The position numbers were made by a program, and so were the translations under genes. From Ktedonobacterales bacterium (lineage in GTDB: Bacteria; Chloroflexota; Ktedonobacteria; Ktedonobacterales; JADMIN01): 32,000 nucleotides of DNA. A model generated the notes under the pieces. It did not search any database. It saw nothing but the letters and a program-made list of their open reading frames with translations, and had not been told where the DNA came from. Location of the stretch: NCBI GenBank assembly GCA_030167145.1, contig CP126532.1:4440001-4472000 (forward strand). The letters are read 5' to 3'. Each line of letters starts with the position of its first letter. The first letter of the stretch is position 1. This document shows positions 21,673-26,575 of the stretch, one piece after another.

Positions 21673-22968
21673 CTACTCCACCAGCACCCGCAGCGCCCCC
21701 TGCCGCGAGAACGCGCCAACCGCGCGCCGCTGCGCCGTGATGACCACCGCCACATCCTCATGCGGCTCACCCAGCAGCGATTTCAGAGCTTCGAGCACCA
21801 GCGTATCTTCCGCGACCATGATCGTTGGTGGCCGCGCAAGCGTCTCAGCGGTCACGTGCTCCGGCTGATTGTGCAGCGCGGCCACCACCTGCGCCGGCGC
21901 ATGCGAGACAAACCGCCTCCACACGCCCGAAAGCCCTCCGTCGGTGCGCGGCGTGATCGGCGCGAGCAGCGCGCGATCATCTATGACTCCGCGCAGCGCA
22001 CCATCTGCCCCCACCACCAGCGCCAGCCGCAGCGGCGAGCGATCCAGCGCGGCCACCACCTCGCGCAGCGGCGTCTCACCCGGCAGCAGCGGCAACTCGC
22101 GCTCAGCCAGCGCGCCCGCCGTCAGTCGTTCCCCAGCCCCCGGCAACACGCACAGCCGCAACGTCGCCTCCGCTGGCTGGCTAGCGGGCGTCCGGCCAGA
22201 TGGCGCGACGATGGCCGCCAGAATATCACGTTCGGCCAGCATCCCCACCAGCCGTCCCTGCGCATCCACCACCGGCGCGCGGGTCACTCCCCGTTCCGCC
22301 AGCAAGCGCGCCGCCGCGCCCAGTTCCATGCCGCTTGGCATGGTCACTGGCTCCGCCAGCATACGCTCGCCAACTGTGCGCCCCGCCGCCAGCCTACCCA
22401 GATATGCGCGTATATCCGCTGGCGTCCGCAGGGCCGCCACCCGTGCTCCGCCCACTTGCCATTCCGCATCGCCACCCGCCAACACATGATCGAGTGTCAG
22501 CACCCCCACCACCACATCGCCCACCGCGACCACCGGTAACAGCCGCGTGTCGCCTTCCAGCAGCCGCGCCAGCCCCTCGCTTAATGGCGTCTCTGGCTGC
22601 ACGGCGATCCCAGGTGGACGCATCTCGTCGCGCACCAGCAGATGCGTCGCCGGAAAGTAGAGTCGTGTATCTGCGACGGTCAGCACGCCCGACGTCACCA
22701 GTGCGGCGATCTGCGGCAGCAGCGGCTCGATGCGGTCCGCGCGATCCACGATCTCGATAATCAGCGGTAGGTCGTCGCCAAGGTCCACATGCCCCGATGT
22801 ACGCATCCCACCGTGCGGCGTGAACCCTTCGAGCGCGCGTGTCACCGTCATACCCGCCAGCCCATGGCGGCGCACCAGCGCGAACAGCGCATCTTGCGTG
22901 GACTTGCTTCCAGCGCGGGCGCGCTCATGGGTCAACACACGAACCGTCAGACCAGGGAGCCAGGGCAT
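21673..22968 (-). CDS. DUF190 (PII-like, UPF0166) domain fused to four CBS domains (two Bateman modules)
   Basis: ORF 21673-23004. I prefer the ATG at 22968, 6 nt after AGGAGG. The N-terminal ~110 aa match the DUF190 pattern (LTVRVL...GLAGMTVTRALEGFTPHGGMRT...DLPLIIEIVD...IEPLLPQI). Four CBS-like units follow, each ending in a motif such as VGVLTLDHVL, VGMLAERDIL, RGVIDDRALL or VGAFSRQGAL. It starts 81 nt downstream of the antiporter gene on the same strand. Confidence 0.8.
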   Translation of the reverse strand: MPWLPGLTVRVLTHERARAGSKSTQDALFALVRRHGLAGMTVTRALEGFTPHGGMRTSGHVDLGDDLPLIIEIVDRADRIEPLLPQIAALVTSGVLTVADTRLYFPATHLLVRDEMRPPGIAVQPETPLSEGLARLLEGDTRLLPVVAVGDVVVGVLTLDHVLAGGDAEWQVGGARVAALRTPADIRAYLGRLAAGRTVGERMLAEPVTMPSGMELGAAARLLAERGVTRAPVVDAQGRLVGMLAERDILAAIVAPSGRTPASQPAEATLRLCVLPGAGERLTAGALAERELPLLPGETPLREVVAALDRSPLRLALVVGADGALRGVIDDRALLAPITPRTDGGLSGVWRRFVSHAPAQVVAALHNQPEHVTAETLARPPTIMVAEDTLVLEALKSLLGEPHEDVAVVITAQRRAVGAFSRQGALRVLVE

Positions 22969-23049
22969 ATGGCGCCTCCTGTCCACCAGTGGCACAGTGT
23001 TCACTCCGTATCATACGCCACCGGCGACATACGCGCATGCCGCCTCCCA

Positions 23050-24285
23050 TTACTCGTCGAGGATGCCCGCGACCTCGGCAACCTCTTCCGGTGTCTCTGT
23101 CGGAGTCTCAACTTCGCCCGCCACCGGCCCGGCCTCGCCCAGTTCCACGCGCGGACGGAAGAACGATTGCGCAAAGAGCGTTGGCACTACGGCGCTGAGG
23201 ATCACGACCGTCACCAGCACAGTATATTGCGTCTGATTGATGTAGCCATGCGCCAGGCCGAATAGCGCCGAAATCGAGCCGAAGGTGAGGCCCGTCGCCA
23301 TCAGCAGCGTCGTATAGTTGCCCACGCGCGGTCCCAGGCCAAAGGGGCGCGTCAGCGGACGGATGCCGATGATCTTAGTCAGCATCTTCGTGAAGAAGAA
23401 CACCGCCACCAGTCCTGCGCCCGTCGCCGTCAGCAGCGCCGGCAGCGAGACTAGCGAACCGGCTTTGAGGAAGTAGAACGGCGTCAGCAGCGCGAACGCC
23501 GTCGAGCGCATCCGGTCCATCAGCACGCGGTTATGCATGAACGTCCCCGCGATCACTAGCCCGATGAGGTACGCGGGCAACACCGCCTCGCTGCGGGCAA
23601 TGGTCGCAAGTCCCCCCAACCCAAAGAGCACCAGGAACAGAAACTTTACCTCCGGCTCGCTCACTCGCCCACCCCAGCGGCGAATCACGAAGCGCGCCGT
23701 CCACGGCAAGATTGCCAGCACCATCCCCGTCACGCCGACAAAAAGCGCCAGCCAGATGTCGTAGTTCGCAAAGAGCACCCCCAGCGCCAGCACCGTGCCC
23801 AGGTCGTTGACAAAGCACGCGGCGAGGATCAGTTTGCCGATTTCGGTGCGGTTCAACCCCGTCTCCACCATCACCGCATACACCACCGCCACCGAAGTCG
23901 TGGAGAGCGCGATTCCCGCGATCTGCGCCGCGTGCAGATTCCAGTGAACGCCCCAATAGGCCACCGCGAACGCACCCAAGAATGGCGCGAAGAAGCCGAC
24001 CGTGCCGATGACCATGCTGGCTCTGAAATGCTTGCGGAACGAGGCGGGATCAATCTCCGCGCCCGCCAGGAAGGTCAGCAGTACACTGCCGAAACCTGCC
24101 AGGAAATTGATCCAGTCATTGGTCTGGATATGCAGGAAGTTGCCCGCCACCACCCCGATGAGAATCTCCGTCAGCGCCACCGAAATACCCGTGCGAATCG
24201 AGATCAGGCTCGCCGCCAGCGCCAGGCCAATCCACAGCGCGGCGATGAGATACATGTTGTCGAACTGCACCGCTGGCAATGTCAT
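23050..24285 (-). CDS. cation:proton antiporter (Na_H_Exchanger / CPA superfamily), membrane domain only
   Basis: 411 aa with RBS GGGAGG. It has about 11-12 hydrophobic segments. Family motifs present: FLAGAEID, ALSTTSVAVV and ACFVNDLGTVLAL (Asn160-Asp161, nt 23803-23808). There is no fused RCK/KTN domain and only a short acidic tail. Confidence 0.9.
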   Translation of the reverse strand: MTLPAVQFDNMYLIAALWIGLALAASLISIRTGISVALTEILIGVVAGNFLHIQTNDWINFLAGFGSVLLTFLAGAEIDPASFRKHFRASMVIGTVGFFAPFLGAFAVAYWGVHWNLHAAQIAGIALSTTSVAVVYAVMVETGLNRTEIGKLILAACFVNDLGTVLALGVLFANYDIWLALFVGVTGMVLAILPWTARFVIRRWGGRVSEPEVKFLFLVLFGLGGLATIARSEAVLPAYLIGLVIAGTFMHNRVLMDRMRSTAFALLTPFYFLKAGSLVSLPALLTATGAGLVAVFFFTKMLTKIIGIRPLTRPFGLGPRVGNYTTLLMATGLTFGSISALFGLAHGYINQTQYTVLVTVVILSAVVPTLFAQSFFRPRVELGEAGPVAGEVETPTETPEEVAEVAGILDE

Positions 24286-24464
24286 CTCTCAAGCCTCCCG
24301 GCCACGCCATCATGCCAGATCCACGCGGCCGCGCGAGTGGATGCCGTGTGGCCGTCGGTGGAGCGCCGGAAATTGCCCAGTGCAAAGTTGGGGAATGCCC
24401 GCACACGAGTAGAGGGGTATGCGCGTATGCTTGACCGCGCCTATGTCGCGGCAATGCTGGCCAC

Positions 24465-24544
24465 AAAAAAACGCCTCTACCGGCGGGCGTTCCCTGCTCT
24501 CACCAAGCGAGAGGCAAGACGCGCCGCGCAACAGCCGGTAGAAG
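24465..24544 (-). terminator. intrinsic terminator forming the expression platform of the fluoride riboswitch
   Basis: The minus-strand RNA reads CUUCUACCGGC...(long interrupted helix with apical CUCUC-GCUUGGU-GAGAG)...GCCGGUAGAGG-CG-UUUUUUU. The 11-nt 5' arm (24544-24534) overlaps the 3' end and pseudoknot strand of the aptamer. The U7 tract is at 24471-24465. Confidence 0.75.
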
Positions 24545-24586
24545 CTATCAGCCCCGTCAGAGGCATTACGCGAGCTTCATCGCGAG
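24538..24586 (-). promoter_or_regulatory. fluoride riboswitch aptamer (crcB RNA motif)
   Basis: The minus-strand RNA is 5'-CUCGCGAUGAAGCUCGCGUAAUGCCUCUGACGGGGCUGAUAGCUUCUAC-3'. P1 is CGCG/CGCG closing the loop AUGAAGCU. P3 is GCCUC-UGAC-GGGGC. The 3' tail is UGAU-AGCUUC-UAC. Loop GAAGCU is fully complementary to tail AGCUUC, giving the pseudoknot. The architecture and conserved letters (GAUG, UGAU, CUAC) match the T. petrophila and P. syringae fluoride aptamers as I recall them, with compensatory changes in the pseudoknot. Confidence 0.82.
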
Positions 24587-24609
24587 CGTGGCTCTAGTGT
24601 TCCTTACAC

Positions 24610-24638
24610 ACTATACGAGCCGTCAGCACCCACGTCAA
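24610..24638 (-). promoter_or_regulatory. sigma70-type promoter driving the riboswitch-antiporter operon
   Basis: The minus strand reads TTGACG (24638-24633), a 17-nt spacer, then TATAGT (24615-24610). The predicted TSS is about 15-20 nt upstream of the aptamer. Confidence 0.6.
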
Positions 24639-25055
24639 TAGTCTCACGCGCCTCTGTTGATATCCAACTAGTATCCGACCGTCCCCGCCTGTCTCCTGCT
24701 GAGGCGGACATTCCTGTACTCCCCTTCCCTCGCGGGGAATGGGTTGGGGGTTAGGTCTCTCGCTCACACACGCCGTATGAAGCTTGCCAACAAATGATGT
24801 TCCTCGACCTGGTTGTCCCCGACTAGTCGGCAGCAACGGCGCTGCTCCCTTACGTTGGGCTAGCACCTGATTAGGTTGTTAAACAACACCATGGCCGCGA
24901 GAACGCGCCCGCGTGATACAATACACTGCCGATTGCCCGCCATCGTCGGTACGCCGCCAGTCACCAGCGCCCACAATCAATTGTCTCGCCAAAGCATCTC
25001 AGGGTAGAGCACCAGCTTAGAAACAGCAGCGCCAGAAAGTTCGAGAATATCAGGC

Positions 25056-26525
25056 ATGAAACCACTTGTCGCCATCGTCGGACGCCCCAACGTCGGCAAA
25101 TCCACCCTCTTCAACCGCCTCATCGGCCAGCGCCTCGCCATCGTCGAAGACATCCCCGGCACCACCCGCGACCGCATCTACGCCGACGCTGAATGGAACG
25201 GCCGCATCTTCACCCTCATTGACACCGGCGGTCTGGAGCTTGCCACCGGCGGCGACTTCAGCGCGCAGATCAATGCCCAGGTGCAGCTTGCCATCGAAGA
25301 AGCCGACGTCATCGTCTTCCTCGTAGACGTGCGCGACGGCATCACCACATCGGACAGCGAAGTCGCTGCGCGCCTGCGCCAATCCAAAAAGCCCGTCGTC
25401 CTCGGCGCCAACAAAGCCGACAACGCCAAGCAGCGCCAGGAATCCGTCGAGTTCTACGAACTGGGCCTCGGCGAACCGATCACCGTCTCCTCCATCTCCG
25501 GCACCGGCACCGGCGACCTCCTCGACGCCATCACCGACGTCCTCCCCCCCAGCGACGGCGACGAAGAAGAAGACGCCACCCCCGGCATCCCGCGCTTCGC
25601 CATCGTCGGACGCCCCAACACCGGCAAATCCTCCCTCGTCAACGCCATCCTCGGCGAAGACCGCGTCATCGTCAGCGACATCCCCGGCACCACCCGCGAC
25701 ACCATAGACAGCGAAGTCGAGCACGACGGCCACAACGTCATCCTGATTGATACCGCTGGTGTCCGGCGGCGTGGGCGTGTCGGCCCCGGCGTCGAAAAGT
25801 ACAGCGTCCTCCGTTCTCATCGCGCCATTGACCGCTGCGACGTCGCCATCCTGATGATTGACGGCGTCGAAGGCATCACCGCGCAAGACACCCATATCGC
25901 CGGCTACATCCACGACGCCGCCAAAGGCATCATCATCGTCATCAACAAATGGGATCTCGTGCGCGAGCGCCGCCGCGCCGCCGAAGACCTCGCCGACCCC
26001 GATCGCCCCGTCTCGCTGGTTCCCGGCGAGAATCCGCCGCAGCTTTCCGCCAAAGAGCAAGAACTGCTCGACGCCAAGCAATATACCCGCGCCGTCCGCG
26101 AGCAGCTCAAATTCGTCCCCTACGCCCCCGTCGTCTTCGCTGCCGCCAAAACCGGCTACCACATGCGCAACATCCTCGACCACGCCCTGCGCATCTACGA
26201 CACCCGCCACGTCCGCATCGCTACCCCCGCGCTCAACGACGTCGTCCGCGACGCCATCCAGCATCATCACCCATCCTTCATTCAGGGCCGCCAGCTCAAA
26301 ATCTACTACGCCACCCAGGCCGAAGTCAGCCCGCCCACCTTCGTCTTCTTCGTCAACGATCCCGCCCTGCTCCACTTCTCCTTCGAGCGCTACCTGGAGA
26401 ACCGCCTGCGCGATGTCTTCGGCTTCGAGGGCACCACCATCCGCCTGCAATTCCGCGCCCGCTCCAAAGATGAAGATGACACCAAAGGCAAGAAACGCCC
26501 GAGCCGCAACGGCGCACGGCGGTGA
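25056..26525 (+). CDS. der: ribosome-biogenesis GTPase Der (EngA), tandem GTPase domains plus KH-like domain
   Basis: 489 aa. There are two G-domains, each with G1 (GRPNVGKST and GRPNTGKSS), DTGG/DTAG and NKxD (NKAD, NKWD). The conserved C-terminal domain is present, followed by a Lys-rich tail. Confidence 0.95.
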   Translation: MKPLVAIVGRPNVGKSTLFNRLIGQRLAIVEDIPGTTRDRIYADAEWNGRIFTLIDTGGLELATGGDFSAQINAQVQLAIEEADVIVFLVDVRDGITTSDSEVAARLRQSKKPVVLGANKADNAKQRQESVEFYELGLGEPITVSSISGTGTGDLLDAITDVLPPSDGDEEEDATPGIPRFAIVGRPNTGKSSLVNAILGEDRVIVSDIPGTTRDTIDSEVEHDGHNVILIDTAGVRRRGRVGPGVEKYSVLRSHRAIDRCDVAILMIDGVEGITAQDTHIAGYIHDAAKGIIIVINKWDLVRERRRAAEDLADPDRPVSLVPGENPPQLSAKEQELLDAKQYTRAVREQLKFVPYAPVVFAAAKTGYHMRNILDHALRIYDTRHVRIATPALNDVVRDAIQHHHPSFIQGRQLKIYYATQAEVSPPTFVFFVNDPALLHFSFERYLENRLRDVFGFEGTTIRLQFRARSKDEDDTKGKKRPSRNGARR

Positions 26526-26575
26526 CATGCGCGCTCGACCATCGTTCCCATCGCCTCGTCCCTCAACGGCCAGAG

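Follow-up and report, generated by a model that had tools for sequence, protein, structure and literature searches.

What does a bacterium regulate with a fluoride riboswitch when no fluoride exporter lies behind it? The question is raised by a locus of a soil Ktedonobacterales bacterium (Chloroflexota; GenBank assembly GCA_030167145.1), which was analysed in a window of 32,000 nucleotides (nt) covering positions 4,440,001 to 4,472,000 of contig CP126532.1. Here, an aptamer of the fluoride riboswitch family (Rfam RF01734) is followed by a gene for a membrane protein of the superfamily of cation/proton antiporters (CPA) and then by a gene for a soluble protein that joins a DUF190 domain to four CBS motifs (DUF190-4xCBS, or the fusion). 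CrcB was not found in the window by tblastn (E <= 1e-4), and no CLC was found among its large open reading frames (ORFs). An earlier interpretation made from the letters alone (the sequence-only reading) had concluded that the two genes stand there instead of a canonical exporter. This is correct for the window; nevertheless, a CrcB (protein P0163) is encoded in the same genome. The locus is thus probably a fluoride-inducible accessory operon of the Ktedonobacterales fluoride stress regulon, in which export is left to the CrcB encoded elsewhere. In the direction of the predicted transcription, it contains the following features:

24610..24638, minus strand: predicted sigma-70-like promoter (TTGACG, 17-nt spacer, TATAGT; 10 of 12 matches in a consensus scan)

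24532..24593, minus strand: fluoride riboswitch aptamer (RF01734, 25.9 bits, E 0.0027)

24465..24546, minus strand: predicted expression platform, an intrinsic terminator competing with the pseudoknot (minimum free energy, MFE, fold)

24285..23050, minus strand: CPA-superfamily antiporter gene (411 amino acids, aa; ribosome-binding site, RBS, GGGAGG; without a cytosolic regulatory domain)

22969..23049, minus strand: intergenic spacer (81 nt; bears the RBS AGGAGG)

22968..21673, minus strand: DUF190-4xCBS gene, locus tag OJF49_004299 (431 aa; DUF190 at aa 1-104, CBS motifs at aa ~111-431)

The aptamer gave no match when the whole window was scanned at the Rfam gathering level. In E-value mode, RF01734 is matched at 25.9 bits, with an E-value of 0.0027 when the entire window is set against all families and of 7.6e-5 locally, while the curated gathering score of the family is 34 bits, which is an operational cut-off and not a structural feature. 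P1 is formed by CGCG/CGCG around the loop AUGAAGCU (24584-24581 with 24572-24569) and P2 by GCCUC/GGGGC (24564-24560 with 24555-24551). In the pseudoknot, which cannot be scored by a covariance model, all six base pairs are present between GAAGCU of the P1 loop (24578-24573) and AGCUUC of the 3′ tail (24546-24541). A base-by-base reading, next to the cmscan alignment, also finds GAUG, CUGAU, and CUAC, the nucleotides conserved in the family. A descriptor of these features matched 24 times in 484 kb, made up of the window and the fetched loci (L numbers below), but not once in the reversed sequences or in any of 20 shuffles. On these controls, together with synteny, the possibility of a chance match was rejected.

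The descriptor did miss two aptamers, those of L003 (GAUGAU for CUGAU) and L011 (CAAUG in P1), both of which were recovered by covariance models. Across 14 aptamers, both sides have changed in three of the four P1 pairs and in four of the six pseudoknot pairs. As these aptamers were picked with a descriptor of pairing, the percentage of paired positions is circular, whereas the compensatory changes are not; P2 is shifted in three rows of the alignment, and only three of its pairs were counted. A custom covariance model, R1, gives the window aptamer 68 bits, a value that has the window as part of the training set of the model. The riboswitch named in the sequence-only reading is therefore real, with P1, P2, and the pseudoknot intact and the descriptor silent in its controls, and it lies at 24593..24532 on the minus strand, outside the interval 21673-24285 given in that reading. 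Compared with the ON-type RF01734 representative of Bacillus cereus crcB, it shares P1, P2, the 6-bp pseudoknot, the GAUG/CUGAU/CUAC nucleotides, and a terminator arm taken from the pseudoknot strand, but differs in a shortened J1/2 linker (UAAU), in its score of 25.9 bits instead of at least 34, and in a leader of ~180 nt after the terminator.

The sequence that follows the aptamer suggests how it would act. In the MFE fold, the aptamer tail GCUUCUACCGG (24545-24535) pairs with CCGGUAGAGGC (24483-24473), and seven U follow at 24471-24465. Because the 3′ tail of the aptamer doubles as the 5′ arm of the terminator, the predicted architecture is that of a transcriptional ON riboswitch. The 3′ arm of the terminator, CGGTAG(A/G)(G)GC, is kept together with the T-run in L005 and L006, the two closest relatives, whose sequences also align with the -10 region of the predicted promoter. 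This promoter ends ~17 nt 5′ of the Rfam aptamer match. By contrast, the leader beyond the terminator is not conserved in L005 or L006, and neither a second conserved element nor a small ORF was found in it; a 73-aa ORF at 24531..24310 was taken for an artefact of the high GC content. Switching by fluoride may be presumed from the analogy with fluoride riboswitches that have been characterised. Transcription from the promoter at ~24638-24610 (minus strand) would produce a leader that folds into the aptamer. Without fluoride, the 3′ tail would pair downstream, the seven-U terminator would form, and transcription would stop. With fluoride, the pseudoknot would hold the tail and block the terminator, and the polymerase would read into the antiporter and DUF190-4xCBS genes.

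The low Rfam score is not peculiar to this window. Aptamers of Chloroflexota in L001 and L003 score 28-30 bits, and a single one, in L001, exceeds the cut-off with 38.3. In effect, a scan at the gathering level misses all seven CPA-linked aptamers of Chloroflexota (L005-L008, L069, L070, and the window), while those of Firmicutes and Spartobacteria pass it (L009-L012, 35-48 bits). Since most aptamers of Chloroflexota go undetected when the Rfam model is used with the curated threshold, the fluoride regulons of this phylum are likely under-annotated. Side observations on aptamer number and placement were made in some of these loci. For instance, the Thermoanaerobacter metagenome-assembled genome (MAG) has tandem fluoride aptamers 5′ of the CPA gene (L010:5777-5951; 48.3 and 35.1 bits) and a third one at 715-774. 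In L069:4509-6001, the aptamer and the CPA gene are separated by an inserted IS605 OrfB/TnpB-like gene that is read from the other strand and apparently uncouples the switch from the CPA gene. The fluoride regulon of the Ktedonobacteria-like contig L001 is unusually dense, with four fluoride aptamers within ~7 kb (L001:5499-12741). Behind them lie a MoxR-like AAA gene, a pair of DUF6062 paralogs, of which one heads an operon with the fusion and crcB, and a hydrogenase cluster resembling formate hydrogen lyase (FHL) and complex I.

The first gene behind the switch encodes a protein that matches Na_H_Exchanger of Pfam (PF00999) with an E-value of 2.9e-37 and 128.8 bits, against a cut-off of 26.2. 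Among the best 120 matches, its homologs are 64-85% identical, and those of Moorella, Thermoanaerobacter, Syntrophomonadaceae, a Clostridia isolate, a Chloroflexia MAG, and a Spartobacteria MAG still reach 56-63%; the closest relatives are in L005, L006, and L069 (78-83%). A fluoride aptamer lies 5′ of the CPA homolog in all 11 of the other loci, which comprise two further contigs and nine genome loci, the latter being the yield of a single-protein query that recovers close relatives only. This bears out the statement, in the sequence-only reading, that antiporter genes occur behind crcB-motif RNAs. The window protein is a Ktedonobacterales member of a subfamily whose members in Moorella, Thermoanaerobacter, Syntrophomonadaceae, Clostridia, Chloroflexia, and Spartobacteria also have an upstream aptamer.

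Neither sequence nor profile searches of the PDB with the CPA protein gave a match. Its AlphaFold model (mean confidence, pLDDT, 83) has a 13-helix NapA-like fold, for which the best PDB folds found by Foldseek are NapA, KefC, and PaNhaP, with a TM-score of 0.75-0.80 to NapA (5bz2). The invariant positions of the family include D161 in the motif CFV(N/T)D, K300, K304, E141, E233, R258, R260, and the STTS segment; D161 is invariant in an alignment of 27 homologs, and its equivalence to NapA D157 is drawn from the motif and not from a residue-level structural alignment. The predicted fold and, going by the motifs, the Asp of the fifth transmembrane helix (TM5) and a Lys are common to this protein, NapA of Thermus thermophilus, and KefC of Escherichia coli (8bxg). 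On the other hand, it is only 20-22% identical to these two, has (N/T)D instead of the DD of NapA or the QD of Kef, and lacks a KTN/RCK domain, as the modelled chain stops ~35 aa past the last helix. It also falls short of the CPA2/Kef cut-offs (TIGR00932, 109 against 238.3; KefB, 31.6 against 804; KefC, 28.6 against 752). Judged from these residues and the model, the most likely activity of the antiporter is an exchange of H+ against K+ or Na+. The end of the chain, encoded at 23050-23120, is a disordered acidic tail with the terminal motif E-V-A-G-x-L/I/M-D-E/D in the closest Ktedonobacterial homologs; the motif is not present in three aligned Firmicutes homologs and could be a docking peptide.

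Could the antiporter itself have become a transporter of fluoride or hydrogen fluoride (HF), and so represent a third family of exporters within the CPA superfamily? The extreme conservation across phyla (56-85% identity), the aptamer found in 11 of 11 loci, the fact that neither sequence nor profile searches link it to a solved CPA, and the (N/T)D in TM5 instead of the canonical DD of CPA2 would fit such a change. Nevertheless, a change to anion transport is disfavoured because Asp161 and Lys300/Lys304 are invariant, as is expected of a cation/H+ site. The fold is also NapA/KefC-like, the protein occurs alongside CrcB both in this genome and in one operon of L007, and the class is treated in the literature as serving pH homeostasis (PMC11139923). 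Anion or HF specificity, which the sequence-only reading had offered as an option, is thus very improbable.

The second gene starts at ATG 22968, given that 21 homologs of the family alignment share the N-terminal sequence MPWVPGL; for the same reason, an upstream GTG was ruled out as the start. The Pfam domain DUF190 (PF02641) is matched at aa 9-101 with 76.3 bits (cut-off 23.4), and CBS is matched as well. Four CBS motifs (PVV...G) are visible in the family alignment, while the stretches above the Pfam threshold for CBS number two in the window protein and four in the L007 homolog. In the AlphaFold model (pLDDT 80.9), the chain begins with a PII-like domain of the topology β-α-β-β-α-β, in which residues 50-60 form a floppy loop, and the four CBS motifs come after this domain. 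Sequence searches of the PDB match PH1503 (2dcl), TM0021 (1o51), and MJ1225, the first two through the DUF190 part, and the best folds in Foldseek are MJ1225 and AMPK gamma, both over ~320 columns, and SSO3205 with AMP. Accordingly, the gene descriptions of the sequence-only reading (a 411-aa Na_H_Exchanger protein, an 81-nt spacer, and a 431-aa protein with DUF190 and two Bateman modules) agree with Pfam and with the models.

Both halves of this protein have known counterparts. Its N-terminal 104 aa share the PII-like topology of stand-alone DUF190 proteins (COG1993; 2dcl, 1o51), whose genes neighbour crcB, and are 53-57% identical to those of Ktedonobacteria; the window protein differs from them in being fused to four CBS motifs and in adjoining a CPA gene and not crcB. 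With the four-CBS adenylate sensors MJ1225 and AMPK gamma and the CBS regulators of transporters (MgtE, CLC, and OpuA) it has the tandem Bateman fold in common (Foldseek E 1e-16 to MJ1225). It differs in that neither a kinase nor a transporter domain is attached to it. A word-indexed search gave ~24 close clusters of relatives and an exhaustive one 29 representatives at E <= 1e-30 and 338 at E <= 1e-10. As ~100 of the top 150 relatives are full-length fusions of 400-460 aa, the architecture is widespread. The DUF190 domain of the window is 63-69% identical to those of six orthologous fusions, four of which are adjacent to crcB; to stand-alone Ktedonobacteria DUF190 proteins, two of three being crcB-linked, it is 53-57% identical, and to two CPA-linked DUF190 proteins 28-31%. 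Given this grouping, the window fusion is an ortholog of crcB-associated fusions that now stands behind an antiporter. A related combination is seen in proteins of 610-630 aa that contain Usp and 4xCBS and sit in the hydrogenase/fusion cluster (L004:6118-8004; P0022-P0024). Their CBS module is 35-41% identical to those of the orthologous fusions and 31% to that of the window itself, so the same sensor module is joined to either a Usp or a DUF190 head.

P0163, of 127 aa, is 63% identical to a Ktedonobacterial CrcB query and bears the name 'MAG: Fluoride ion transporter CrcB [Ktedonobacterales bacterium]'. The longest contig recorded for it has 5,069,607 bp, a value equal to that of both window proteins (P0001 and P0027), which are 100% identical to proteins of a Ktedonobacterales MAG, and the short-read contig of P0163 (L059) comes from the same sample as that of the window locus (L060). 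The organism therefore has the usual exporter, and a genome without crcB was rejected. A distance of 28 nt separates this crcB from the GTPase/DUF697 gene upstream of it (L059:3982-5583), and even an unfiltered search found no fluoride aptamer on the 8.2-kb contig L059, which covers ~5 kb upstream and 2.6 kb downstream of crcB. In consequence, the crcB of this genome is apparently not riboswitch-controlled, and the organism appears, from its sequence, to use the riboswitch for accessory functions.

The neighbourhoods of related genes show which partners each of the two families keeps. Those of the fusion are listed first and those of the CPA gene after them, in gene order:

L001: aptamer, DUF6062, 203-aa gene, fusion, CrcB, 94-aa gene, CrcB; then aptamer, FHL-like hydrogenase cluster

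L003: fusion, CrcB, aptamer, CrcB, DUF190

L062 / L063: fusion, aptamer, CrcB, DUF190, CrcB

L065: fusion, aptamer, CrcB, DUF190

L064: aptamer, 218-aa gene, HAD-like gene, fusion, DUF190, aptamer, DUF58

L004: hydrogenase cluster, Usp-CBS, fusion, aptamer, transposase (Mu-like)

L019 / L020: aptamer, fusion, DUF190, CrcB, CrcB

L066: CrcB, fusion, MFS

L067: fusion without a related neighbour

L007: aptamer, CPA, Usp, DUF190-4CBS, CrcB, in one operon

L070: CPA, Usp, then DUF190

L009, L010, L012, and L013 (all four Firmicutes CPA loci): Usp directly 3′ of CPA

L005: PEP-synthase-like gene 3′ of CPA

L006: Fe-ADH 3′ of CPA

L069: DUF2180-like gene 3′ of CPA

L008: MutS-like gene 3′ of CPA

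The sequence-only reading had seen in the two genes a dedicated pair, that is, a two-part device replacing the canonical exporter, in which the soluble part would sense nucleotides or Mg2+ and gate the antiporter accordingly. The two genes do adjoin and are probably co-transcribed, and the antiporter has no regulatory domain of its own. A CPA-Usp-DUF190-4CBS-CrcB operon exists in L007 and a CPA-Usp-DUF190 series in L070, and with a Usp gene directly 3′ of CPA in four of four Firmicutes loci, a soluble regulatory partner is plausible. Nevertheless, the genome has CrcB, and the closest CPA relatives carry PEP-synthase-like, Fe-ADH, or DUF2180 genes downstream. From the side of the fusion, CPA adjacency is found in only two of ~16 distinct loci, whereas orthologs have crcB adjacent in L001, L003, L062, L065, and L066, and the DUF190 domain of the window groups with the six fusion orthologs (four crcB-adjacent) and not with CPA-linked DUF190. 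In addition, the fusion gene of L062 and L065 is placed 5′ of the aptamer that controls crcB. Such a device is therefore unlikely. In the comparison across loci that had been proposed as a check of the pair, the aptamer 5′ of CPA proved constant (11 of 11), while the pairing recurs only loosely (L007 and L070) and not in the closest CPA relatives; the loci thus do not support a dedicated CPA and DUF190-4CBS unit. What is real is a recurrent link of CPA with small soluble regulatory proteins (Usp, DUF190). The fluoride link of both gene families also stands, through the aptamer-linked CPA loci and the crcB-adjacent DUF190 loci. As the sequence-only reading had stated for DUF190, stand-alone DUF190 genes are adjacent to crcB in 27 of 37 metagenome loci, and in 25 crcB is directly upstream of them and co-oriented.

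At the other extreme, the adjacency might be an accident of rearrangement, with the riboswitch controlling the antiporter only and the fusion being expressed separately and acting on CrcB elsewhere. The fusion orthologs are indeed neighbours of crcB, the fusion is not behind the aptamer in L062 and L065, and mobile elements are found close to related loci (a transposase gene each in L004 and L065; IS605 in L069). Against this, a scan of the 81-nt spacer by sequence and consensus found neither a terminator-like nor a promoter-like site, and the spacer bears an RBS, so that the two genes look co-transcribed, as the sequence-only reading had proposed. The fusion is also found inside aptamer-controlled operons in L001, L064, L019, and L007. 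An accidental neighbourhood is thus quite improbable, more so than the dedicated device.

Other features of these loci were observed in passing. Aptamers inside clusters (L062:9458-9528, L065:6441-6518, L003:12175-12248, L004:9548-9600) sit either between the DUF190-4CBS gene and crcB or between two crcB genes in several of these loci, so that the fusion is 5′ of the switch. The gene after the riboswitch-controlled CPA in L005:2473-5145 encodes an enzyme like phosphoenolpyruvate (PEP) synthase or PPDK, which might refill PEP when enolase is inhibited, and the one in L008:7327-8862 encodes a MutS-domain-V protein, which matches an older association of mutS with the crcB motif. Within the window, a 492-aa ORF at 25050-26528 is antisense to the gene of the 489-aa GTPase der/EngA (25056-26525, plus strand); such mirror ORFs are typical of high-GC DNA, and this one is not a gene. 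A weak CRISPR-DR57 match at 24718-24754 on the plus strand (17.8 bits, E 0.65) consists of one GC-rich hairpin without a repeat array and is most likely due to chance.

Taken as an accessory operon, the locus would work as follows. Once induced, the antiporter might correct the disturbance of pH and ions that results from HF entry and from electrogenic F- export. One way might be to convert the transmembrane pH difference (ΔpH) into membrane potential, with less weak-acid trapping of F- and a drive for Fluc; the ΔpH hypothesis of the sequence-only reading is a reasonable one. From its gene context, DUF190-4xCBS probably senses a ligand in a PII-like manner and regulates fluoride defence in general, possibly through Fluc, the antiporter, or both. 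F- export itself would be carried out by the CrcB encoded elsewhere in the genome. A more specific proposal is that DUF190-type proteins, alone or fused, and Usp dock onto Fluc/CrcB and CPA as ligand-sensing subunits, in the manner of GlnK on AmtB, and that the fusion has been recruited to the antiporter here. This proposal is tentative and rather doubtful, if somewhat less so than the dedicated device. If true, ion fluxes in fluoride stress would be tuned to the energy or Mg2+ state of the cell.

Several observations weigh against the accessory operon as described. The window aptamer scores 25.9 bits, below the Rfam gathering score of 34, and a non-conserved leader of ~180 nt separates the terminator from the start codon. 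We infer co-transcription of the two genes and their induction by fluoride from the sequence, and K+ and Na+ are candidate ions of the antiporter. TM5 carries (N/T)D and not the DD of NapA, a motif from which stoichiometry cannot be read. The ribose-binding motif of CBS proteins is Gly-h-h-Ser/Thr-x-x-Asp/Asn; in the alignment, it is kept only in part in each of the four CBS motifs, and adenine-nucleotide sensing is therefore uncertain. Finally, the order of CPA followed by Usp and/or a DUF190-type gene recurs (L007 and L070, and Usp alone in the four Firmicutes loci), and a direct relationship between CPA and these regulators therefore has to be kept in view.

The accessory operon fits what has been described for fluoride regulons. 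The crcB motif was reported 5′ of mutS, of formate hydrogen lyase genes, and of genes for 'K+ or Cl- transport' (Weinberg 2010, PMC2864571), and a 2024 review lists Na+/H+ antiporters as the next-most common riboswitch-associated class after the exporters and connects this class with pH homeostasis (PMC11139923). That the aptamer is associated with antiporters is thus already known. The antiporter class of Baker 2012, as relayed in PMC11139923 and PMC7266159, belongs to the same body of work. The gene class annotated as 'Na+/H+ antiporter' or 'K+ transporter' likewise lies directly behind the aptamer, and the CPA of the window does not differ from it in kind. A role in ΔpH or pH homeostasis is the working view of the field for these antiporters (PMC11139923), a review that also cites work in which intracellular acidification protects yeast against fluoride. 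For DUF190, a role as a GlnK-like modulator of channels has been suggested from genome context (PMC3543383). The FRM operon of Enterobacter cloacae (ppaC-uspA-eno-gpmA-crcB; PMC5533749) is also riboswitch-controlled and multigene and contains accessory genes that are not exporters, and its Usp has a parallel in the Usp beside CPA in the related loci described here. It differs from the window locus in gene content and in holding crcB in the same operon.

The locus is, in sum, a lineage-specific arrangement of known parts of the fluoride regulon and neither a substitute for an exporter nor a new kind of exporter. The non-exporter genes of this regulon, such as CPA antiporters, Usp, and DUF190, have been listed since 2010-2012, and the literature searched contained no biochemical description of them, including the CPA subfamily studied here. 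The DUF190-4xCBS family, for its part, switches partners between crcB and CPA. Thus, the locus points to two uncharacterised protein families that are tightly linked to fluoride. Together with its relatives, it offers a clean experimental target, with a CPA subfamily that is very conserved and aptamer-linked in every homologous locus examined.

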